A stretch of DNA of 64,000 nt from a virus. Made by a program: the position numbers and the translations under genes. The notes beneath the pieces were generated by a model. That model saw only the letters and a program-made list of their open reading frames with translations. It made no database searches and had not been told where the DNA came from. The stretch lies in the IMG/VR virus record IMGVR_UViG_3300035181_001203, positions 48,654 to 112,653 of that record, one strand, 5' to 3'. Shown in pieces: positions 5,025-49,296 of this stretch. The first letter of the stretch is position 1, and each line of letters starts with the position of its first letter.

Positions 5025-5350
5025 TGTACAATAGTCCTAAAAAATGCACCTGTTATACCATTATTTAATACTAGTGTTGGTAAGACAATTGGCTTATAAG
5101 CTATAATTGGCTGTGTAATGTATATATTCGTTTCATATTGTGAAATCATGCCATTTGAATTATCTTTAACAGATAATAAAATATGTTTTACACCTAAAGA
5201 ATCAAATTTAACATAAATTTTTCTACCAGTAAGCGTAATTATATTAAGATGATCTAAATTTATTTGCCATGAATAACTATAATTTGCATTATGCTTAACT
5301 AAATCGTTAGCTATTAATAAAACTTTTGAAAATTGTGGAAAATATCTCAT
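5021..5350 (-). CDS. Small PKD/Ig-like protein
   Basis: YSYSW...VKFDSLGVKHILLSVKD resembles a PKD domain; ATGA overlaps. Confidence 0.45.
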   Translation of the reverse strand: MRYFPQFSKVLLIANDLVKHNANYSYSWQINLDHLNIITLTGRKIYVKFDSLGVKHILLSVKDNSNGMISQYETNIYITQPIIAYKPIVLPTLVLNNGITGAFFRTIVQ

Positions 5351-6372
5351 GAAATTTTAATTCCAGAAATAGGATTGGTGTCTAACTCACTGATATTAAT
5401 TCCAGCAGCTTTTCTATTTACAGAACTTGTATTGTCTATTATTTTAGCTTTTTGTCTTACTAAATTAGCGTTTCTTTCTATATCACCAGTTATATCTTCA
5501 TATAAATTACCATCAATCTGTCTTACAACATCACCTTTAATAATTTCTTTATATAATAATTGTCCACCCATTCCACCAATAGTTTTGTTGTAAATAGTGT
5601 TGTGTTGATCATCAACGATCACAGTTTCTATAATACCATTAGAAAATATATTATAAGTTATATAATTTCCACAAACTATTTGAATATCTCCAACTGGTTT
5701 TAAAATAATAGTTAAATTAGGATTTCTTTTTTTAGTTGTTGGGTCTATATCACCAACAAATACCGTTATTCCGGCTTGTGTAAAATCAATCTGATATTCA
5801 AAATTCTCAGACATAGCATCTTCATTATCGTTTGCGCCGTTAATAAAATTACGATCACTACCAGAGAAGCATAGTCTAGTAATTACTTCATCACCACTGT
5901 TAATAGAAAATACTCTAAAACCAGCCCCCATAGCATCGTAATTTTGACATACCGTGCGAATCAGACCCTCAAGACCCGAGTAAATCGTCTGACACAGGGG
6001 GCTAGACCCCATCATGCTTAATTTTCCGCGTAACAAGGATAAAAAAGCACCGTCTGGACCTGAAATCATACGGTCGCCGGGTAAATGTCTATTTAATGGC
6101 AAATTTCCACCAAAGCCTGATAAGAACTGCGTTAAGTTATTATCATCTCTAGATCTGCCGACATACCAACGAGAAATCTTTGATCCACCATCCTCGTCAG
6201 TAAAAATAACTGCTATATCACCTAATTCTGGATGGTGTAAGTCTCCAGACTGTTTTAAACTACATTCAGCATATGAAACATCTTCAGTGAAGAAATTACC
6301 ATCAATTGAGATAGTATCGCAACACAATCTGTTAACATCAACATAAATTATTCTAGCTTCATGATAACTCAT
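5347..6372 (-). CDS. Putative baseplate central spike (gp5/gpV-like)
   Basis: N-terminal PELGDIAVIF (OB-fold-like) and C-terminal 8-residue repeats IKGDVVRQ/IDGNLYED/ITGD typical of spike beta-helices. Confidence 0.45.
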   Translation of the reverse strand: MSYHEARIIYVDVNRLCCDTISIDGNFFTEDVSYAECSLKQSGDLHHPELGDIAVIFTDEDGGSKISRWYVGRSRDDNNLTQFLSGFGGNLPLNRHLPGDRMISGPDGAFLSLLRGKLSMMGSSPLCQTIYSGLEGLIRTVCQNYDAMGAGFRVFSINSGDEVITRLCFSGSDRNFINGANDNEDAMSENFEYQIDFTQAGITVFVGDIDPTTKKRNPNLTIILKPVGDIQIVCGNYITYNIFSNGIIETVIVDDQHNTIYNKTIGGMGGQLLYKEIIKGDVVRQIDGNLYEDITGDIERNANLVRQKAKIIDNTSSVNRKAAGINISELDTNPISGIKIS

Positions 6373-6752
6373 CTAAATTGACCTTTATCATCTATAATTT
6401 TAGGAATATCTGTTATTACTTTTGCATTAATTCTTTTATTACAGATAAGACTTGAAGGTTTTCCAATATAATTTTTAATAACTTTATCTTTTGATAATTC
6501 AAAAACTTTAAGACCCAAATCCTCATTTGAAATACCAGGGTCATTCATAATGATATCATGTATGTCAGAATCTTCATACAAAATATGAATATGTATATCT
6601 ATAAAATTATCAATATAATCACTAATCAAACTAGATAAGCTTTTCCCATATTTTTGCAAGATTCTTGTAATCAATAACCATTTTCCCATATTCATATGAA
6701 ATGAAGTTATTCTTCCCATCATTTCTGTCTTTTTAGTATTCTTAATTTTCAT
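6369..6752 (-). CDS. Hypothetical protein
   Basis: 127 aa ORF with ATGA overlap into the next gene. Confidence 0.5.
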   Translation of the reverse strand: MKIKNTKKTEMMGRITSFHMNMGKWLLITRILQKYGKSLSSLISDYIDNFIDIHIHILYEDSDIHDIIMNDPGISNEDLGLKVFELSKDKVIKNYIGKPSSLICNKRINAKVITDIPKIIDDKGQFR

Positions 6753-6900
6753 GACAGCATCTCGCGCGCTTTAAAAGCAACTACCACAAAAAGAAAAACC
6801 AGGGGTTGTTGCATATATGTTCGTATTAGCTGATATTTTATTATTCATGAGTATTAAAAAACCAATTAATGATTGTTTTAGATTTGTTAAAAGTGATAAA

Positions 6901-6980
6901 AATTTCTTTTAAAAAAAAAAAAAAAAAAAATAAAGAAAATAATAATAATAATAATATATTATTATATATAATATACTCTA
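6901..6980. repeat. A20 homopolymer plus (AAT)n/(AT)n low-complexity tract
   Basis: A20 at 6911-6930 followed by AATAATAATAATAATATATTATTATATATAATAT. Confidence 0.9.
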
Positions 6981-7011
6981 TCGCTACTCCCATCATTAAT
7001 CGAACCGACTA

Positions 7012-7346
7012 GAGCACAAGTCCAATGGATCTAAGATCTACACTGTTCATACCACCGTCCTACAATCATATTTGGGATGACCCTCACACGCGAAGGTGGA
7101 AAAAGGGAGGAATCCCAAAACTCGCCTCGCGCACGTAGCCGATTTTTGAAATACGATTGTAGGGCGGGGGTATGAAGGGTCGAAATACTGATTTTCATGG
7201 ACTTGTGCTCCCCCTGGAATCCATTATCAACATGAGTGTTGGACCCTTCAAACACGAAACCCCGACATTTGCCGGGGTTTCTACCAGATACTTGTGTTAC
7301 ACTAATCACTTGAGGTCGCTCCACTTTCGTAAAACTCTCAAACTTC
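7012..7346. other. GC-rich, extensively self-complementary non-coding element (structured RNA or origin element)
   Basis: GAGCACAAGTCCA(7012)/TGGACTTGTGCTC(7198); CCGTCCTACAATC/GATTGTAGGGCGG; TTTGGGAT/ATCCCAAA; GAAACCCCG/CGGGGTTTC. Confidence 0.6.
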
Positions 7347-7414
7347 AACAATAAGTGTCACACAATCTTGATATAAAGTCAACTTTTTTTTAAATATTGA
7401 AACCAATAATATAT

Positions 7415-7444
7415 TAGCAAAATATTAAGTCTTTTTGTTATAAC
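7415..7444 (+). promoter_or_regulatory. Promoter of the GCAA-N18-TATAAT family (variant -10)
   Basis: TAGCAA-18 nt-TATAAC with TG extension, then AGGAGG RBS. Confidence 0.6.
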
Positions 7445-7460
7445 AATATTAGGAGGAACA

Positions 7461-9128
7461 ATGAATATTGATATTGAAATTGAAAATGGAGTTGAAGAAT
7501 ATTCACTTTTTAATTATTTTTACATAAGTCAACGCTATTTTGCTTCAGGGATCAATAGAATCACTGGAGAAACTAAAAAATTTATCACAACAAAAGGTTT
7601 TGATCAAATTTTAATGTCCTCTAAAAAGGGAATTGAATATAATTTTACGAAAAAACATTTCAATCCATATTTATGTGATAAAGAGAAGCTGATTTTTAGG
7701 GAATCACAGCTTATTGAAAATCAAAAAATTATAAAAGATATAGGTCCATCTAATTTTAGTGGTAATTATGAAGTAGTTAAAAAAAATCAGCCATATAAAG
7801 ATAATTTTTATTTTGAGACAGTTCCTTTTAAGGTAGAAGGTTTTGATCTTTTTAGATATCAAAACGATGATTTGTATTTTACACAGTATCAATCAGATGC
7901 TAGAAATAAATTGCCTCAACTTGTGAATGTTTTTGATGCAAATTTGTATGAAAAAATTAATATAGTACATGCAGTTAATGATAATGGTGATGATTATTTT
8001 GATCTTAATTGTCTTATTCGTATTTGCGATGCAGAACTTGGATATCCAGATAAGAATTCATTCTATTCTATTATTAGAGCGGCAGGATTTGAAGGGGTTT
8101 TTAAACCCCATAAAATAGGTCCATTAGAATTTGTAAACTTAAAAGATATTTTACAGTTTAAAAATGATTGTGGCAACGCTTATATTCAAAAAAACATAAA
8201 TAAGAAGCTTTCTAAACGCAAATTTGCATTTAGATACTTATATGAATACTTTAAAATTATAGAATCTTTATGTTCTAAACGTAGAAAACAATCAATAGGC
8301 TCACAAACTGGGCCTAAAGAATATAAAAAGGAAGAATTTTTACCTATTTTTTACGATAATACAATTATGGATTTTAAAATTGTATATTTTAAAGATATTT
8401 TTACTATTGAACGTAAACATGAGCTTAAGAAGATTGTTCCAGGGGATCCAATCTTCTATATTGATGGTCATTATGACTTTAATACTGGAGCAGTATCCTT
8501 TTATAATTTCAAATCAACAGGTGAAATAGTTAAAAAAATAAAAGAGAAGTTAGGAACAACCACTTCAATTAGATTTGCTAAAGTTATATCTGAATGGCTT
8601 CCTAATACATTTGGATATATTCCCCTTATAGTTAAACTAAGTATGTCTCAAAAAGCAAATCCTTCTCCATTATCCGATAATCTCACTCTCTATACAATTC
8701 CGATTAGAGAAGAAGGTTCAAATGAGGTTTTTGGTGCTGAGACGTATGTAAATTTATTTGAGTATTTTGCTAACTTTGGCATACACATTCCACAAATACG
8801 TAATATGCTTAATGCAAATAGATTTAGTTCTAAGATCTTTACACTTCTCGATACAACATTTCCAGTTTATAACGTATGTAAGGATACTCGACGTAAAATA
8901 CATGAATTTGACGAGATAAATGATCAGGATAATGAGCTTATAAATCTAATGTTTCCAGTAAGTTACGGAGTCTTAGTAATTTCACACATTCTTGAAAAAG
9001 CTGGTATATCCAAAAACTCTTATTGGTATTCCAACCTTAATAGGCTCTGCCAATCCTTCCCCCCTGGAGATGCAATTTCAACCGTCTATACCCCTCCTGA
9101 ACTTCAGGAATATTTAAATGAGGAATAA
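7461..9128 (+). CDS. Hypothetical 555 aa protein next to the candidate origin
   Basis: Long ORF, AGGAGG RBS; no family recognised. Confidence 0.7.
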   Translation: MNIDIEIENGVEEYSLFNYFYISQRYFASGINRITGETKKFITTKGFDQILMSSKKGIEYNFTKKHFNPYLCDKEKLIFRESQLIENQKIIKDIGPSNFSGNYEVVKKNQPYKDNFYFETVPFKVEGFDLFRYQNDDLYFTQYQSDARNKLPQLVNVFDANLYEKINIVHAVNDNGDDYFDLNCLIRICDAELGYPDKNSFYSIIRAAGFEGVFKPHKIGPLEFVNLKDILQFKNDCGNAYIQKNINKKLSKRKFAFRYLYEYFKIIESLCSKRRKQSIGSQTGPKEYKKEEFLPIFYDNTIMDFKIVYFKDIFTIERKHELKKIVPGDPIFYIDGHYDFNTGAVSFYNFKSTGEIVKKIKEKLGTTTSIRFAKVISEWLPNTFGYIPLIVKLSMSQKANPSPLSDNLTLYTIPIREEGSNEVFGAETYVNLFEYFANFGIHIPQIRNMLNANRFSSKIFTLLDTTFPVYNVCKDTRRKIHEFDEINDQDNELINLMFPVSYGVLVISHILEKAGISKNSYWYSNLNRLCQSFPPGDAISTVYTPPELQEYLNEE

Positions 9129-9131
9129 AAA

Positions 9132-9341
9132 ATGAAAATTTTATTAAAAACCGATAATCGTAAAAGAATTACTTTACCAAAAGAAGCTAATATTAAATCT
9201 GGTGATGTTCTTTCTTTTGAAATTTTAGAAACAGGTCAAATTATGTTGACTCCAGTTGAAATTATTCCTAAGAGGTTAATTAAAGATGGAGTTTTTACAG
9301 AAACCAATGAATCCGTTCAAATTATTATTAAGGAAGATTAA
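9132..9341 (+). CDS. AbrB/MazE/SpoVT-family DNA-binding protein
   Basis: DNRKRITLPKE..IKSGDVLSFE....IMLTPV swapped-hairpin signature. Confidence 0.75.
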   Translation: MKILLKTDNRKRITLPKEANIKSGDVLSFEILETGQIMLTPVEIIPKRLIKDGVFTETNESVQIIIKED

Positions 9342-32303: not shown

Positions 32304-32480
32304 ATGGAACCATCTAAAATATGCCGTAGGAAGTTTATAACCTGTAGAGTATCTAAAGAAGAGAAAGAAATTATTGATAGCAATGCGTTGAAATCTGGTA
32401 AAGATATATCAACGTTTGTTAGAGATAGGCTTCTTCTTACGGACAAAGAATTTTTAAAAGAGTTGCTACAAAAAGCGTAA
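32304..32480 (+). CDS. Ribbon-helix-helix DNA-binding protein (58 aa, missed by the track)
   Basis: RRKFITCRVSKEEKEIIDSNALKSGKDISTFVRDRLL; GGGAG RBS. Confidence 0.7.
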   Translation: MEPSKICRRKFITCRVSKEEKEIIDSNALKSGKDISTFVRDRLLLTDKEFLKELLQKA

Positions 32481-48077: not shown

Positions 48078-49296
48078 TTCACAATTTTTATTTAATTATC
48101 TTCCATCATTTTATCAGAACTTTATGAATGATAAAGATGGGAATAATTTAATTGCTCCAATCTTTGATATTTATTTAAATAGTATTAGCGATGCAATATT
48201 CCAGGGGCAGCAAATTGGGGCTGTTCCTTTTATAGAATTATGTGATCCTATTATTGTTGAATTATTTTCTACTATTGATGTAACAATAAATAATAAATAT
48301 TTAGATGGTTATATTATAGATAATGAAATAATTAAACTAGAAGGATTATATCTCGATGGTAATTTTACAAAACCAGTATTAGGAACATATTCAATTAAAC
48401 ATAATATTTCAAATAATATTCGTTATATAGTTTTTGATACGCAATTACCGTTAACTCAATCAAATATTTTTATTCAAAAAGTTTATAGAGATAAACAGAT
48501 TCTACAAAATATTTGGGGAAATTTAATTAATTACAAAAAACAGATTCCTGATTATAATACTTTATCAGATGGATTTATAGTAGATTTCACATCTATTCAA
48601 TCTGACTTAATTTCATATAAAAATCAGATTATAGCTTTATATTATGGTCTTATTAATGGACCTTCTATTAATTCAATGCGTAATGGATTAGGAATATTTC
48701 TTGGTTTAAAATATGCAACATTTGATGGTATTGTGACAGATTTGAGTAGTGGTGTTACTATAGAATCTTTAGATAGATTGACAACATATAACGCTCCATG
48801 TATTCCAAGAACAGATTTAATAATTGGATCATTAGTTAAAAAATATGATTTACTTGAACAGCCTACATATACTTTTTATGATATTTATAATAATCCAGCA
48901 GCATTTACACAAATTCTTTTAGAAGGACAAGCTGATAAATATTTTACCCTATTAAATATAGATACGGCTAATCAAGAACAATATGCTCATTTAACTTTTG
49001 ATTCGACTATTTCATTCGATGATGTTAATATTTATTGGGATATGGGCAATGGGACTGGACTTGTTAAAGATTTGACAGGCACTACATTGACACCAAAATA
49101 TGACCCACTAACGCCAGAAACAAGATTTGATTCATGGGTTTCACCTTTATTTAATAATGAAAAAATATATGAAATGTTTAGAAATTTATTTATAGTTAGA
49201 GTTGATTCAGCTACAAATGCTAATGCTGATTTTACATATTATCTTAATAGAATAAAACCAATTTGGACAAAATATATTACTTCAGTGTATGTTTAG
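48070..49296 (+). CDS. Putative baseplate wedge-type protein
   Basis: FLFNYLPSFY N-terminus, GPSINSM, YLNRIKP; context. Confidence 0.45.
   Translation: MSDSQFLFNYLPSFYQNFMNDKDGNNLIAPIFDIYLNSISDAIFQGQQIGAVPFIELCDPIIVELFSTIDVTINNKYLDGYIIDNEIIKLEGLYLDGNFTKPVLGTYSIKHNISNNIRYIVFDTQLPLTQSNIFIQKVYRDKQILQNIWGNLINYKKQIPDYNTLSDGFIVDFTSIQSDLISYKNQIIALYYGLINGPSINSMRNGLGIFLGLKYATFDGIVTDLSSGVTIESLDRLTTYNAPCIPRTDLIIGSLVKKYDLLEQPTYTFYDIYNNPAAFTQILLEGQADKYFTLLNIDTANQEQYAHLTFDSTISFDDVNIYWDMGNGTGLVKDLTGTTLTPKYDPLTPETRFDSWVSPLFNNEKIYEMFRNLFIVRVDSATNANADFTYYLNRIKPIWTKYITSVYV

Follow-up and report, generated by a model that had tools for sequence, protein, structure and literature searches.

The stretch of DNA analysed here (the window; 64,000 nucleotides [nt]) corresponds to positions 48,654 to 112,653 of the IMG/VR virus record IMGVR_UViG_3300035181_001203, a 112.6-kb record with an estimated completeness of 72%, which encodes a DnaE-type polymerase and a helicase and lacks a cultured relative. 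Near the left end of the window a GC-rich island lies at a strand switch, with minus-strand structural and tail-side genes to its left and plus-strand early genes to its right; a scan for tRNA and tmRNA genes recovered none. The features of the island and its immediate flanks, numbered by their position in the window, are the following:

5347-6372, minus strand: left-flank gene coding for a protein of 341 amino acids (aa)
6905-6975, no strand assigned: pure A/T tract, with A20 at 6911-6930 (T20 on the minus strand), then (AAT)n and TATA-rich DNA
6976-7255, minus strand: GC-rich body of ~280 nt, 47-52% GC, which in the window phage holds a long nested hairpin at 7012-7210
7034-7357, minus strand: stop-free frame of 107-108 codons, with a possible GTG start at ~7306 after GGAG and without a coding signature
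7177-7193, minus strand: conserved box AATCAGTATTTCGACCC (GGGTCGAAATACTGATT on the plus strand), within the internal bubble of the long hairpin
7256-7281, minus strand: very stable GC hairpin GAAACCCCGG..CGGGGTTTC, followed on the minus strand by a weak U tract (GUGUUUG)
7294-7302, minus strand: leader box GTGTAACAC, with the consensus CGTAACAC
7347-7382, minus strand: predicted leftward promoter (P_L), with the -35 TTGACT (7382-7377), a 17-nt spacer with TG at -15/-14 and the -10 GACACT (7359-7354)
7415-7444, plus strand: predicted rightward early promoter (P_R) of the 555-aa gene, TAGCAA, 18 nt, TG-T-TATAAC, with a palindromic TGTTATAACA
7461-9128, plus strand: 555-aa orphan gene, a neighbour of the element and not a part of it

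The structural elements that an initial annotation had read from this island are in place. The A20 run lies within the pure A/T tract at the strand switch, and the nested hairpin possesses a 13-bp closing stem (GAGCACAAGTCCA/TGGACTTGTGCTC, 7012-7024/7198-7210), a long inner stem (7046-7073/7149-7176, with 28-nt arms that are 89% complementary) and an apical stem (TTTGGGAT/ATCCCAAA). The sequences of a proposed alternative pairing, TGAAGGGTC at 7173 with GACCCTTCA at 7242, are likewise present, the latter within a GTGTT/AACAC hairpin at 7235-7254, and a further hairpin, GAAACCCCG...CGGGGTTTC, follows at 7256-7281. As had been noted, wobble pairs leave the strand undecided, the body fold counting 10 G-U pairs whichever strand is taken. 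Folding z scores of the 371-nt island (6975-7345) were -5.55 (plus strand) and -5.29 (minus strand), none of 100 dinucleotide shuffles folding as well, and its GC content is 47-52%, versus ~25% in the flanks and 32% in the record. The structured island is real and exceeds chance by far.

The relatives compared at the DNA level are distant ones, with 41-47% identity in the 555-aa protein. The same layout was recovered upstream of the 555-aa homologue in L006/L007, L008 and L009, L006 and L007 being the same phage and counted once, and the full set of six modules comprises that of the window and those of five distinct distant relatives (L007, L008, L009, L026 and G001), of which G001 is a complete, terminally redundant genome of 157 kb. 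In all six phages the module occurs at the early/late strand switch, in one copy per genome, with a common order and spacing of its parts. Its GC-rich stretch measures 269-352 nt (a body of 269-301 nt in five modules and 352 nt in L009), and the primary sequence is almost wholly divergent, the GC content and length of the body being better kept than its sequence or fold. The element is a real, conserved, non-coding boundary module without a described family, and it occurs in a small clade of ~157-kb uncultured phages from lake and peat metagenomes. DNA similarity searches of GenBank phages and exact-word searches of IMG/VR recovered no match to it, and no modules beyond the six emerged when IMG/VR and species genomes were scanned. 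A promoter-plus-box pattern scan of IMG/VR returned 70 matches, and an A/T tract followed downstream only in two already known loci; a scan of genome contigs for a host recovered nothing.

The module travels with the strand switch and the 341-aa left-flank gene, 44-48% identical homologues of which adjoin it in L007, G001 and L026, and not with the 555-aa gene. In G001 ~16 kb of the early block separate the 555-aa gene from the module, which stays at the strand switch; in the L026 record the gene lies 5-10 kb away and the module again stays at the switch, beside the 341-aa gene. Its retention there despite the distance of the 555-aa gene indicates that the module belongs to the early/late boundary. 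The proposal that the adjacent orphan is a replication initiator rested on this adjacency, and since the gene does not move with the module its sole claim to that role is gone.

The leftward promoter postulated in the initial annotation is kept in all six modules and reads toward the T-run. Its pattern, TTGAC..A...TG..ACA.T, is invariant in five aligned modules, with a -10 of the form nACAmT, and the L009 version is GTGACA-N17-TAGAAT. P_L is classed as a predicted host-type promoter, sigma-70-like and TG-extended, with a start probably near 7347. It is not listed by a simple consensus promoter scan, and a consensus scan for promoters and terminators performs no better than shuffles; the support for P_L is its conservation in the relatives. 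Promoters of the P_L type are few in either genome, and others of them precede minus-strand genes. A palindrome TGTG-N-CACA lies over the -10 of P_L at 7351-7366 (GTGTGACAC in the window, TTGTGTCACAA in L007 and TGTGCCACA in L026), which may be an operator. In L026 (1-3600, reverse strand) an HNH endonuclease gene is inserted between P_L and the early promoter.

Downstream of P_L a leader of ~70 nt carries the CGTAACAC box, which is formed by conserved columns in the alignment of five leaders, and is followed by the GC hairpin. This is the top local hairpin of the modules, at -16 to -20 kcal/mol, the runner-up reaching -8 to -11 (-20 in the window, against -10 or weaker for the next local hairpin); it is the strongest locally in five of the six, and in those five begins 101-109 nt from the -35. 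The stem sequence is different in every module, with 2-4 pair types at each stem position. RNAalifold returned no consensus structure for the leaders because the MAFFT alignment set the hairpins out of register, so the stems were compared by direct tabulation. A good minus-strand U tract follows the hairpin in L007, L008 and G001, a weak one in the window and none in L026. Measured against a lambda-type layout, the promoter is present in all six modules and the hairpin at a fixed offset in five, with the U tract good in three of these, weak in the fourth and missing from the fifth. The only Rfam matches are terminator-like and sub-threshold, and fall on this 7256-7281 hairpin. Beyond it, a box of the type AATCAG(C/T)A(C/T)TT(A)C is found ~57-75 nt past the hairpin in five modules; the box at 7177-7193 aligns in register with AATCAGCACTTAC..GCAGACC of L007 and L008, and related ..CTTAC motifs are found in G001 and L026.

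The folding of the body varies greatly among the relatives. Its z scores (plus/minus strand) are -6.0/-3.7 in the window, -5.0/-6.1 in L009, -2.8/-4.4 in L026, -3.0/-1.6 in L008, -0.8/-0.6 in L007 and +0.5/-0.3 in G001; correspondingly, the ~200-nt nested hairpin is strong in the window, L009 and L026, weak in L008 and absent from L007 and G001. The expectation of a structure conserved in relatives is borne out for the GC hairpin, with its covarying stems in five of the six modules, and not for the nested hairpin. The outline of the latter had been likened to 6S RNA, and in the window phage alone there is indeed a ~200-nt hairpin in which a large internal loop separates the closing stem from a long inner stem. 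However, no Rfam family reached its gathering score in the 64-kb window, no 6S model was among the matches to 6700-7500 at E values up to 10, and none matched the five relatives at E values up to 0.1. As the covariance search thus lacks a 6S match and the stem-bubble-stem outline is lost in relatives, the 6S reading is not supported.

The A20 run is the sole homopolymer run of at least 10 in the 112-kb record, and the tract that holds it is among the lowest-GC 80-nt windows. Equivalent tracts of 70-110 bp, purely A/T and with a homopolymer run, occupy the same place in all six modules (A12, A20, A26 and A32, and T14+A8 in G001, that of L008 being cut by the contig end); in G001 the tract is the most extreme A/T stretch, and has the only run of at least 10, of the genome. 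Three contigs (L006:1, L008:1 and L009:1) end inside the A/T tract or A-run, the length of which may be heterogeneous; a practical corollary is that the tract breaks metagenome assemblies of these phages. In L026 a T32 run ends 17 nt before the ATG of the first gene on the left, so that the transcript of this gene must start to the right of the run. To the left of the A-run a minus-strand motif AACAACCCCTGG (6806-6817) is common to G001 and L026 and looser in L007; in the window it falls within a 25-codon open reading frame (ORF) upstream of the annotated start of a 127-aa gene. A T4-type late promoter, TATAAATA, was considered within the A/T tract and rejected, the motif being scattered genome-wide on both strands.

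A further oddity of the module is a frame that is free of stops and yet non-coding. In all six modules one frame, always on the minus strand, lacks stops over 97-184 codons and reaches from the leader across hairpin and body to a point 52-70 nt short of the A/T tract. Compared with dinucleotide shuffles in any of the six frames, the individual P values are 0.065, 0.091, 0.073, 0.0007, 0.026 and 0.069, giving a Fisher combination of 2.5e-5, or 1.7e-3 when L009 is left out. Shine-Dalgarno (SD)-like sequences with ATG, GTG or TTG occur 28-40 nt before the hairpin, which would give 86-98 codons in five modules, and an N-terminal pattern M-[LI]-x-[RH]-x-T is common to four frames. In L009 (410-700) a 290-nt AT-rich insert is present, and an ATG lies right after P_L as a leaderless start, in frame with the stop-free frame. 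The frames show no codon periodicity (p = 0.09-0.98 each, 0.26 when pooled over 1842 nt), whereas 14 of 16 like-sized control ORFs give p < 0.01, and their GC content at third codon positions (GC3) is ~46% versus 15% in real genes. Pairwise protein comparison recovered no similarity among them except in the hairpin region of one pair, a six-frame protein comparison of the islands was negative, and the best conserved DNA box falls in different frames in L007 and L008. There was no Pfam match, nor any homologue of the product among 5.8 billion proteins, where close relatives of the neighbouring gene do occur. Given the lack of periodicity, of a conserved protein and of a database homologue, we conclude that the frame is not an ordinary gene. 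As for why the frame stays open, our guess is that translation as such matters.

The interpretation which we tentatively prefer, with somewhat less than even confidence, is that the island specifies a leftward, non-coding leader, transcribed by the host polymerase, by which read-through into the structural operon is gated. It is favoured because P_L is the only recognisable conserved promoter leading into the structural block, the downstream minus-strand genes showing neither another recognisable promoter nor a gap of at least 45 nt for ~9 kb. Host RNA polymerase would initiate at P_L and move left, transcribing first the ~70-nt leader with its box, then the GC hairpin, then ~280 nt of GC-rich RNA with the AATCAG..TTAC box (and the long nested hairpin in the window phage, L009 and L026), and then a pure A/U tract with U20, beyond which the closely packed genes of the structural operon follow. 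Most polymerases would halt or pause at the hairpin and the U-run, and read-through to the structural genes would be gated. The gate might be a ribosome on the stop-free frame that crosses the hairpin, in an attenuation of the pyrBI kind, or else a phage factor, acting by antitermination as with lambda Q or HK022 put. What the sequences show is that the promoter, hairpin, boxes, A/T tract and open frame are conserved and that a coding signal is lacking; we infer the firing of P_L, the leftward extension of its transcript and the gating. Consistent with a leader are the shared order and spacing of the six modules around a nearly invariant P_L, the fixed-offset hairpin with covarying stems, the better U tract on the minus strand in L007, L008 and G001, the constant minus-strand location of a stop-free frame with SD-like starts but devoid of the coding signal seen in control ORFs, the place of the T32 run just before the first left gene of L026, and the occurrence of P_L-type promoters elsewhere ahead of minus-strand genes.

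Several observations weigh against this interpretation. The GC hairpin may not be a terminator, as its U tract is absent in L026 and weak in the window, and the bodies of L007 and G001 lack a fold signal. The plus strand has more G than C in five of the six bodies and folds more stably in four, a possible sign that the RNA is read from that strand. A leader would not predict the unique, purely A/T tract with its homopolymer run, which would better fit a DNA unwinding element. Finally, neither an antiterminator gene nor an alternative antiterminator pairing was found, there is no annotated candidate for a Q-like gene, and the neighbouring proteins have no family matches.

Known leaders offer partial parallels. 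In phage lambda the late leader comprises pR', the 6S transcript and tR', with antitermination by Q, and put of HK022 is a structured RNA acting in cis. As in these systems, the module would combine a host-type, constitutive promoter ahead of a very long structural operon with a hairpin ~100-200 nt downstream and a structured leader RNA in cis. Unlike them, it has no identified Q-like gene or Q-binding element, the U tract of its hairpin is missing in one phage and weak in the window, and its leader would be much longer, GC-rich and terminated by an A/U tract. Attenuation of the pyrBI type resembles the module in having a leader frame through the hairpin, a peptide that is not conserved and U-rich runs; in contrast, the frame of the module is ~90 codons long versus 44 and continues ~230 nt beyond the hairpin, and both translation and a link to the nucleotide pool are hypothetical here.

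The strongest rival, somewhat unlikely in our estimate, is a transcription-activated replication origin, in which the A/T tract would be the unwinding element and a transcript from P_L, or a plus-strand one from the A/T-GC border, would activate or prime replication. The origin and leader readings are not mutually exclusive, and the origin-like layout remains a live rival because the A/T tract is unique in the genome. A single module per genome at a divergent early/late switch, a conserved promoter aimed at the A/T tract, the extreme character of this tract and of its homopolymer run in the complete genome G001, and the lack of a better origin candidate within the window would all fit an origin. 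The closest documented precedent is the origin of lactococcal phage c2. In Ceduovirus phages the origin occupies non-coding DNA that separates the divergent early and late blocks, where a promoter-driven non-coding transcript is thought to be essential and the different ori types share function and not sequence (PMC7150918). The c2 origin resembles the module in being a non-coding region of several hundred bp between divergent blocks, flanked by a promoter with a non-coding transcript (a putative one in the module), GC-enriched relative to its genome, followed by an early promoter with TGTTATAAT, and variable in sequence among ori types that keep their function. The c2 transcript region has no fold signal either (z = -0.28), as in L007 and G001, and weak folding therefore does not exclude an origin.

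On the other side, PE1 of c2 reads toward the early genes (EP1 and EP2 share the early direction in the c2 annotation), whereas P_L is aimed at the structural, late genes. The c2 transcript has neither an ORF nor a ribosome-binding site, whereas a stop-free frame with SD-like starts, unexpected in a primer RNA, persists in the module; c2 also lacks a pure A/T tract with a long homopolymer and a fixed GC hairpin, and its replication function has been shown, that of the module being hypothetical. No iterons or direct repeats beyond A/T low complexity were found in any of the six modules, and no tandem repeats; no initiator gene accompanies the module, and the replication genes are 35-40 kb away. 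The GC-skew inflection, which the initial annotation would have taken as a sign of an origin, is explained by gene orientation alone: a cumulative minimum does lie at the module, but skew follows the gene strand in every block, co-oriented and head-on blocks being equal in magnitude with no replication component in the latter, and as it is confounded by gene strand it was rejected as evidence. The T7 primary origin, oriF and oriG of T4 and RNA II of ColE1 likewise have a promoter followed by easily melted A/T-rich DNA, and the structured pre-primer RNA of ColE1 is a further likeness. In the module, however, promoter and tract would be ~370 nt apart with a hairpin in between, and an R-loop, hypothetical here, is disfavoured because the RNA entering the tract would be U-rich and rU:dA is the weakest hybrid. 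Thus, of the original suggestion of a replication origin or a new non-coding RNA, a conserved non-protein-coding element at the switch with an origin-like layout stands, and the 6S likeness, the initiator link and the skew do not.

Returning to the leader, a more specific variant, which we regard as doubtful, is that it is translated but non-coding: selection would exclude stops from ~90 codons along a GC-rich RNA that bears the hairpin, the peptide itself being irrelevant, and a ribosome trailing the host RNA polymerase would melt the hairpin, protect the transcript and carry the polymerase ~370 nt to the A/U tract, there switching on the ~50-kb structural operon or laying a replication primer.

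It is improbable, to a slightly greater degree, that the module encodes one or two stand-alone, trans-acting small RNAs, namely one of ~95-100 nt from P_L to the GC hairpin and/or a plus-strand one of ~280-300 nt from the A/T-GC border, with the A-run as an UP element, to the same hairpin, a 6S-like polymerase decoy being included in this reading. A promoter and a hairpin at a fixed distance would define a unit of ~95 nt, the A-run of every module precedes its GC-rich body by 36-67 nt, where an UP element would sit, the plus-strand bias in G content and stability noted above would agree with the longer RNA, GC islands in AT-rich DNA are typical of structured RNA genes, and both genomes keep a second mini-unit of promoter and hairpin at another site. 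Against such RNAs, none of the Rfam families (6S among them) matches at E values of up to 10 in the window and 0.1 in relatives, the long hairpin with its bubble is not conserved, and hardly any sequence is conserved that could serve as a seed or a protein site. The A/T tract contains no recognisable -35, most modules lack a plus-strand U tract at the hairpin, L026 having one on neither strand, and the minus-strand open frame across both putative RNAs would not be accounted for.

An element acting purely as DNA, either a cruciform inverted repeat or a GC clamp beside the A/T tract that insulates the two blocks from supercoiling or transcription, would suit the equally good long hairpins and equal G-U counts on the two strands and the retention of GC content and length over sequence and fold, but leaves the conserved promoter, strand-specific frame, U tracts and boxes unexplained and lacks its inverted repeat in L007 and G001, and is very improbable. 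Just as slight is the chance of a small, fast-evolving protein gene of ~90-100 codons read from P_L on the minus strand, for which the frame in all six modules, its similarly placed SD-like starts and the shared N-terminal pattern in four would speak, but which is contradicted by a GC3 well above that of real genes and by the failure of the periodicity, similarity and database tests described above.

With respect to the right flank, P_R is kept ahead of the 555-aa homologue in L007, L008 and L009, and belongs to a class of ~10 plus-strand members of the form TTGCAA-N18-TGTTATAAT, often followed by ATATATGG. The predicted members of this class and a second conserved unit are located as follows:

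7415-7444, 18081, 31606, 35795, 36728, 37016 and 37515 in the window, plus strand: P_R-class promoters, with four further sites to the left of the window
~47.9 kb left of the window start in G000, minus strand, and position 32400 of G001, plus strand: promoter-hairpin mini-unit

The P_R-class promoters at 35.8-37.5 kb precede GC-rich stretches. The mini-unit consists of TTGACA-N14-TGnTAGACT with a strong GC hairpin 12 nt further on, and may represent a promoter-proximal terminator or else specify a very short RNA. A sub-threshold Rfam match to isrG, at 41 bits versus a gathering score of 100 (E = 1e-7), falls in the early region of G001 (~137.5 kb; L024:1496-1756, minus strand).

The 555-aa protein has 22 homologues, of which P0002-P0007 are 67-81% identical, and lacks any match in Pfam, PHROG, PDB sequences, GenBank phages or the Atlas. 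An AlphaFold2 model with a mean pLDDT of 79 predicts a confident fold that is unmatched: Foldseek recovered nothing, and VIA-align gave weak winged-helix, APSES or Dachshund-like matches for residues 386-530 (Z 5.4, below the meaningful level). In addition to its lack of synteny with the module, the protein thus carries no replication-protein signature or family match and its fold matches are weak, and it was rejected as an initiator. The gene that follows (9132-9341) encodes a 69-aa protein with a MazE/AbrB-type (SpoVT-AbrB) DNA-binding domain scoring 23.7 bits against a Pfam cut-off of 24.7, and is a candidate early regulator.

Because these phages have no cultured relatives and their early proteins are nearly all orphans, a conserved non-coding landmark at the early/late boundary is the best available handle on their regulation or replication. 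If it is a leader, the module would represent a new attenuator or antiterminator design for a very long structural operon, and if this leader is indeed translated without coding, it would be a phage timing device that reads the translational state of the host. If it is instead an origin, the little-studied c2-type origins with a non-coding transcript would extend to large phages with their own DnaE polymerase.

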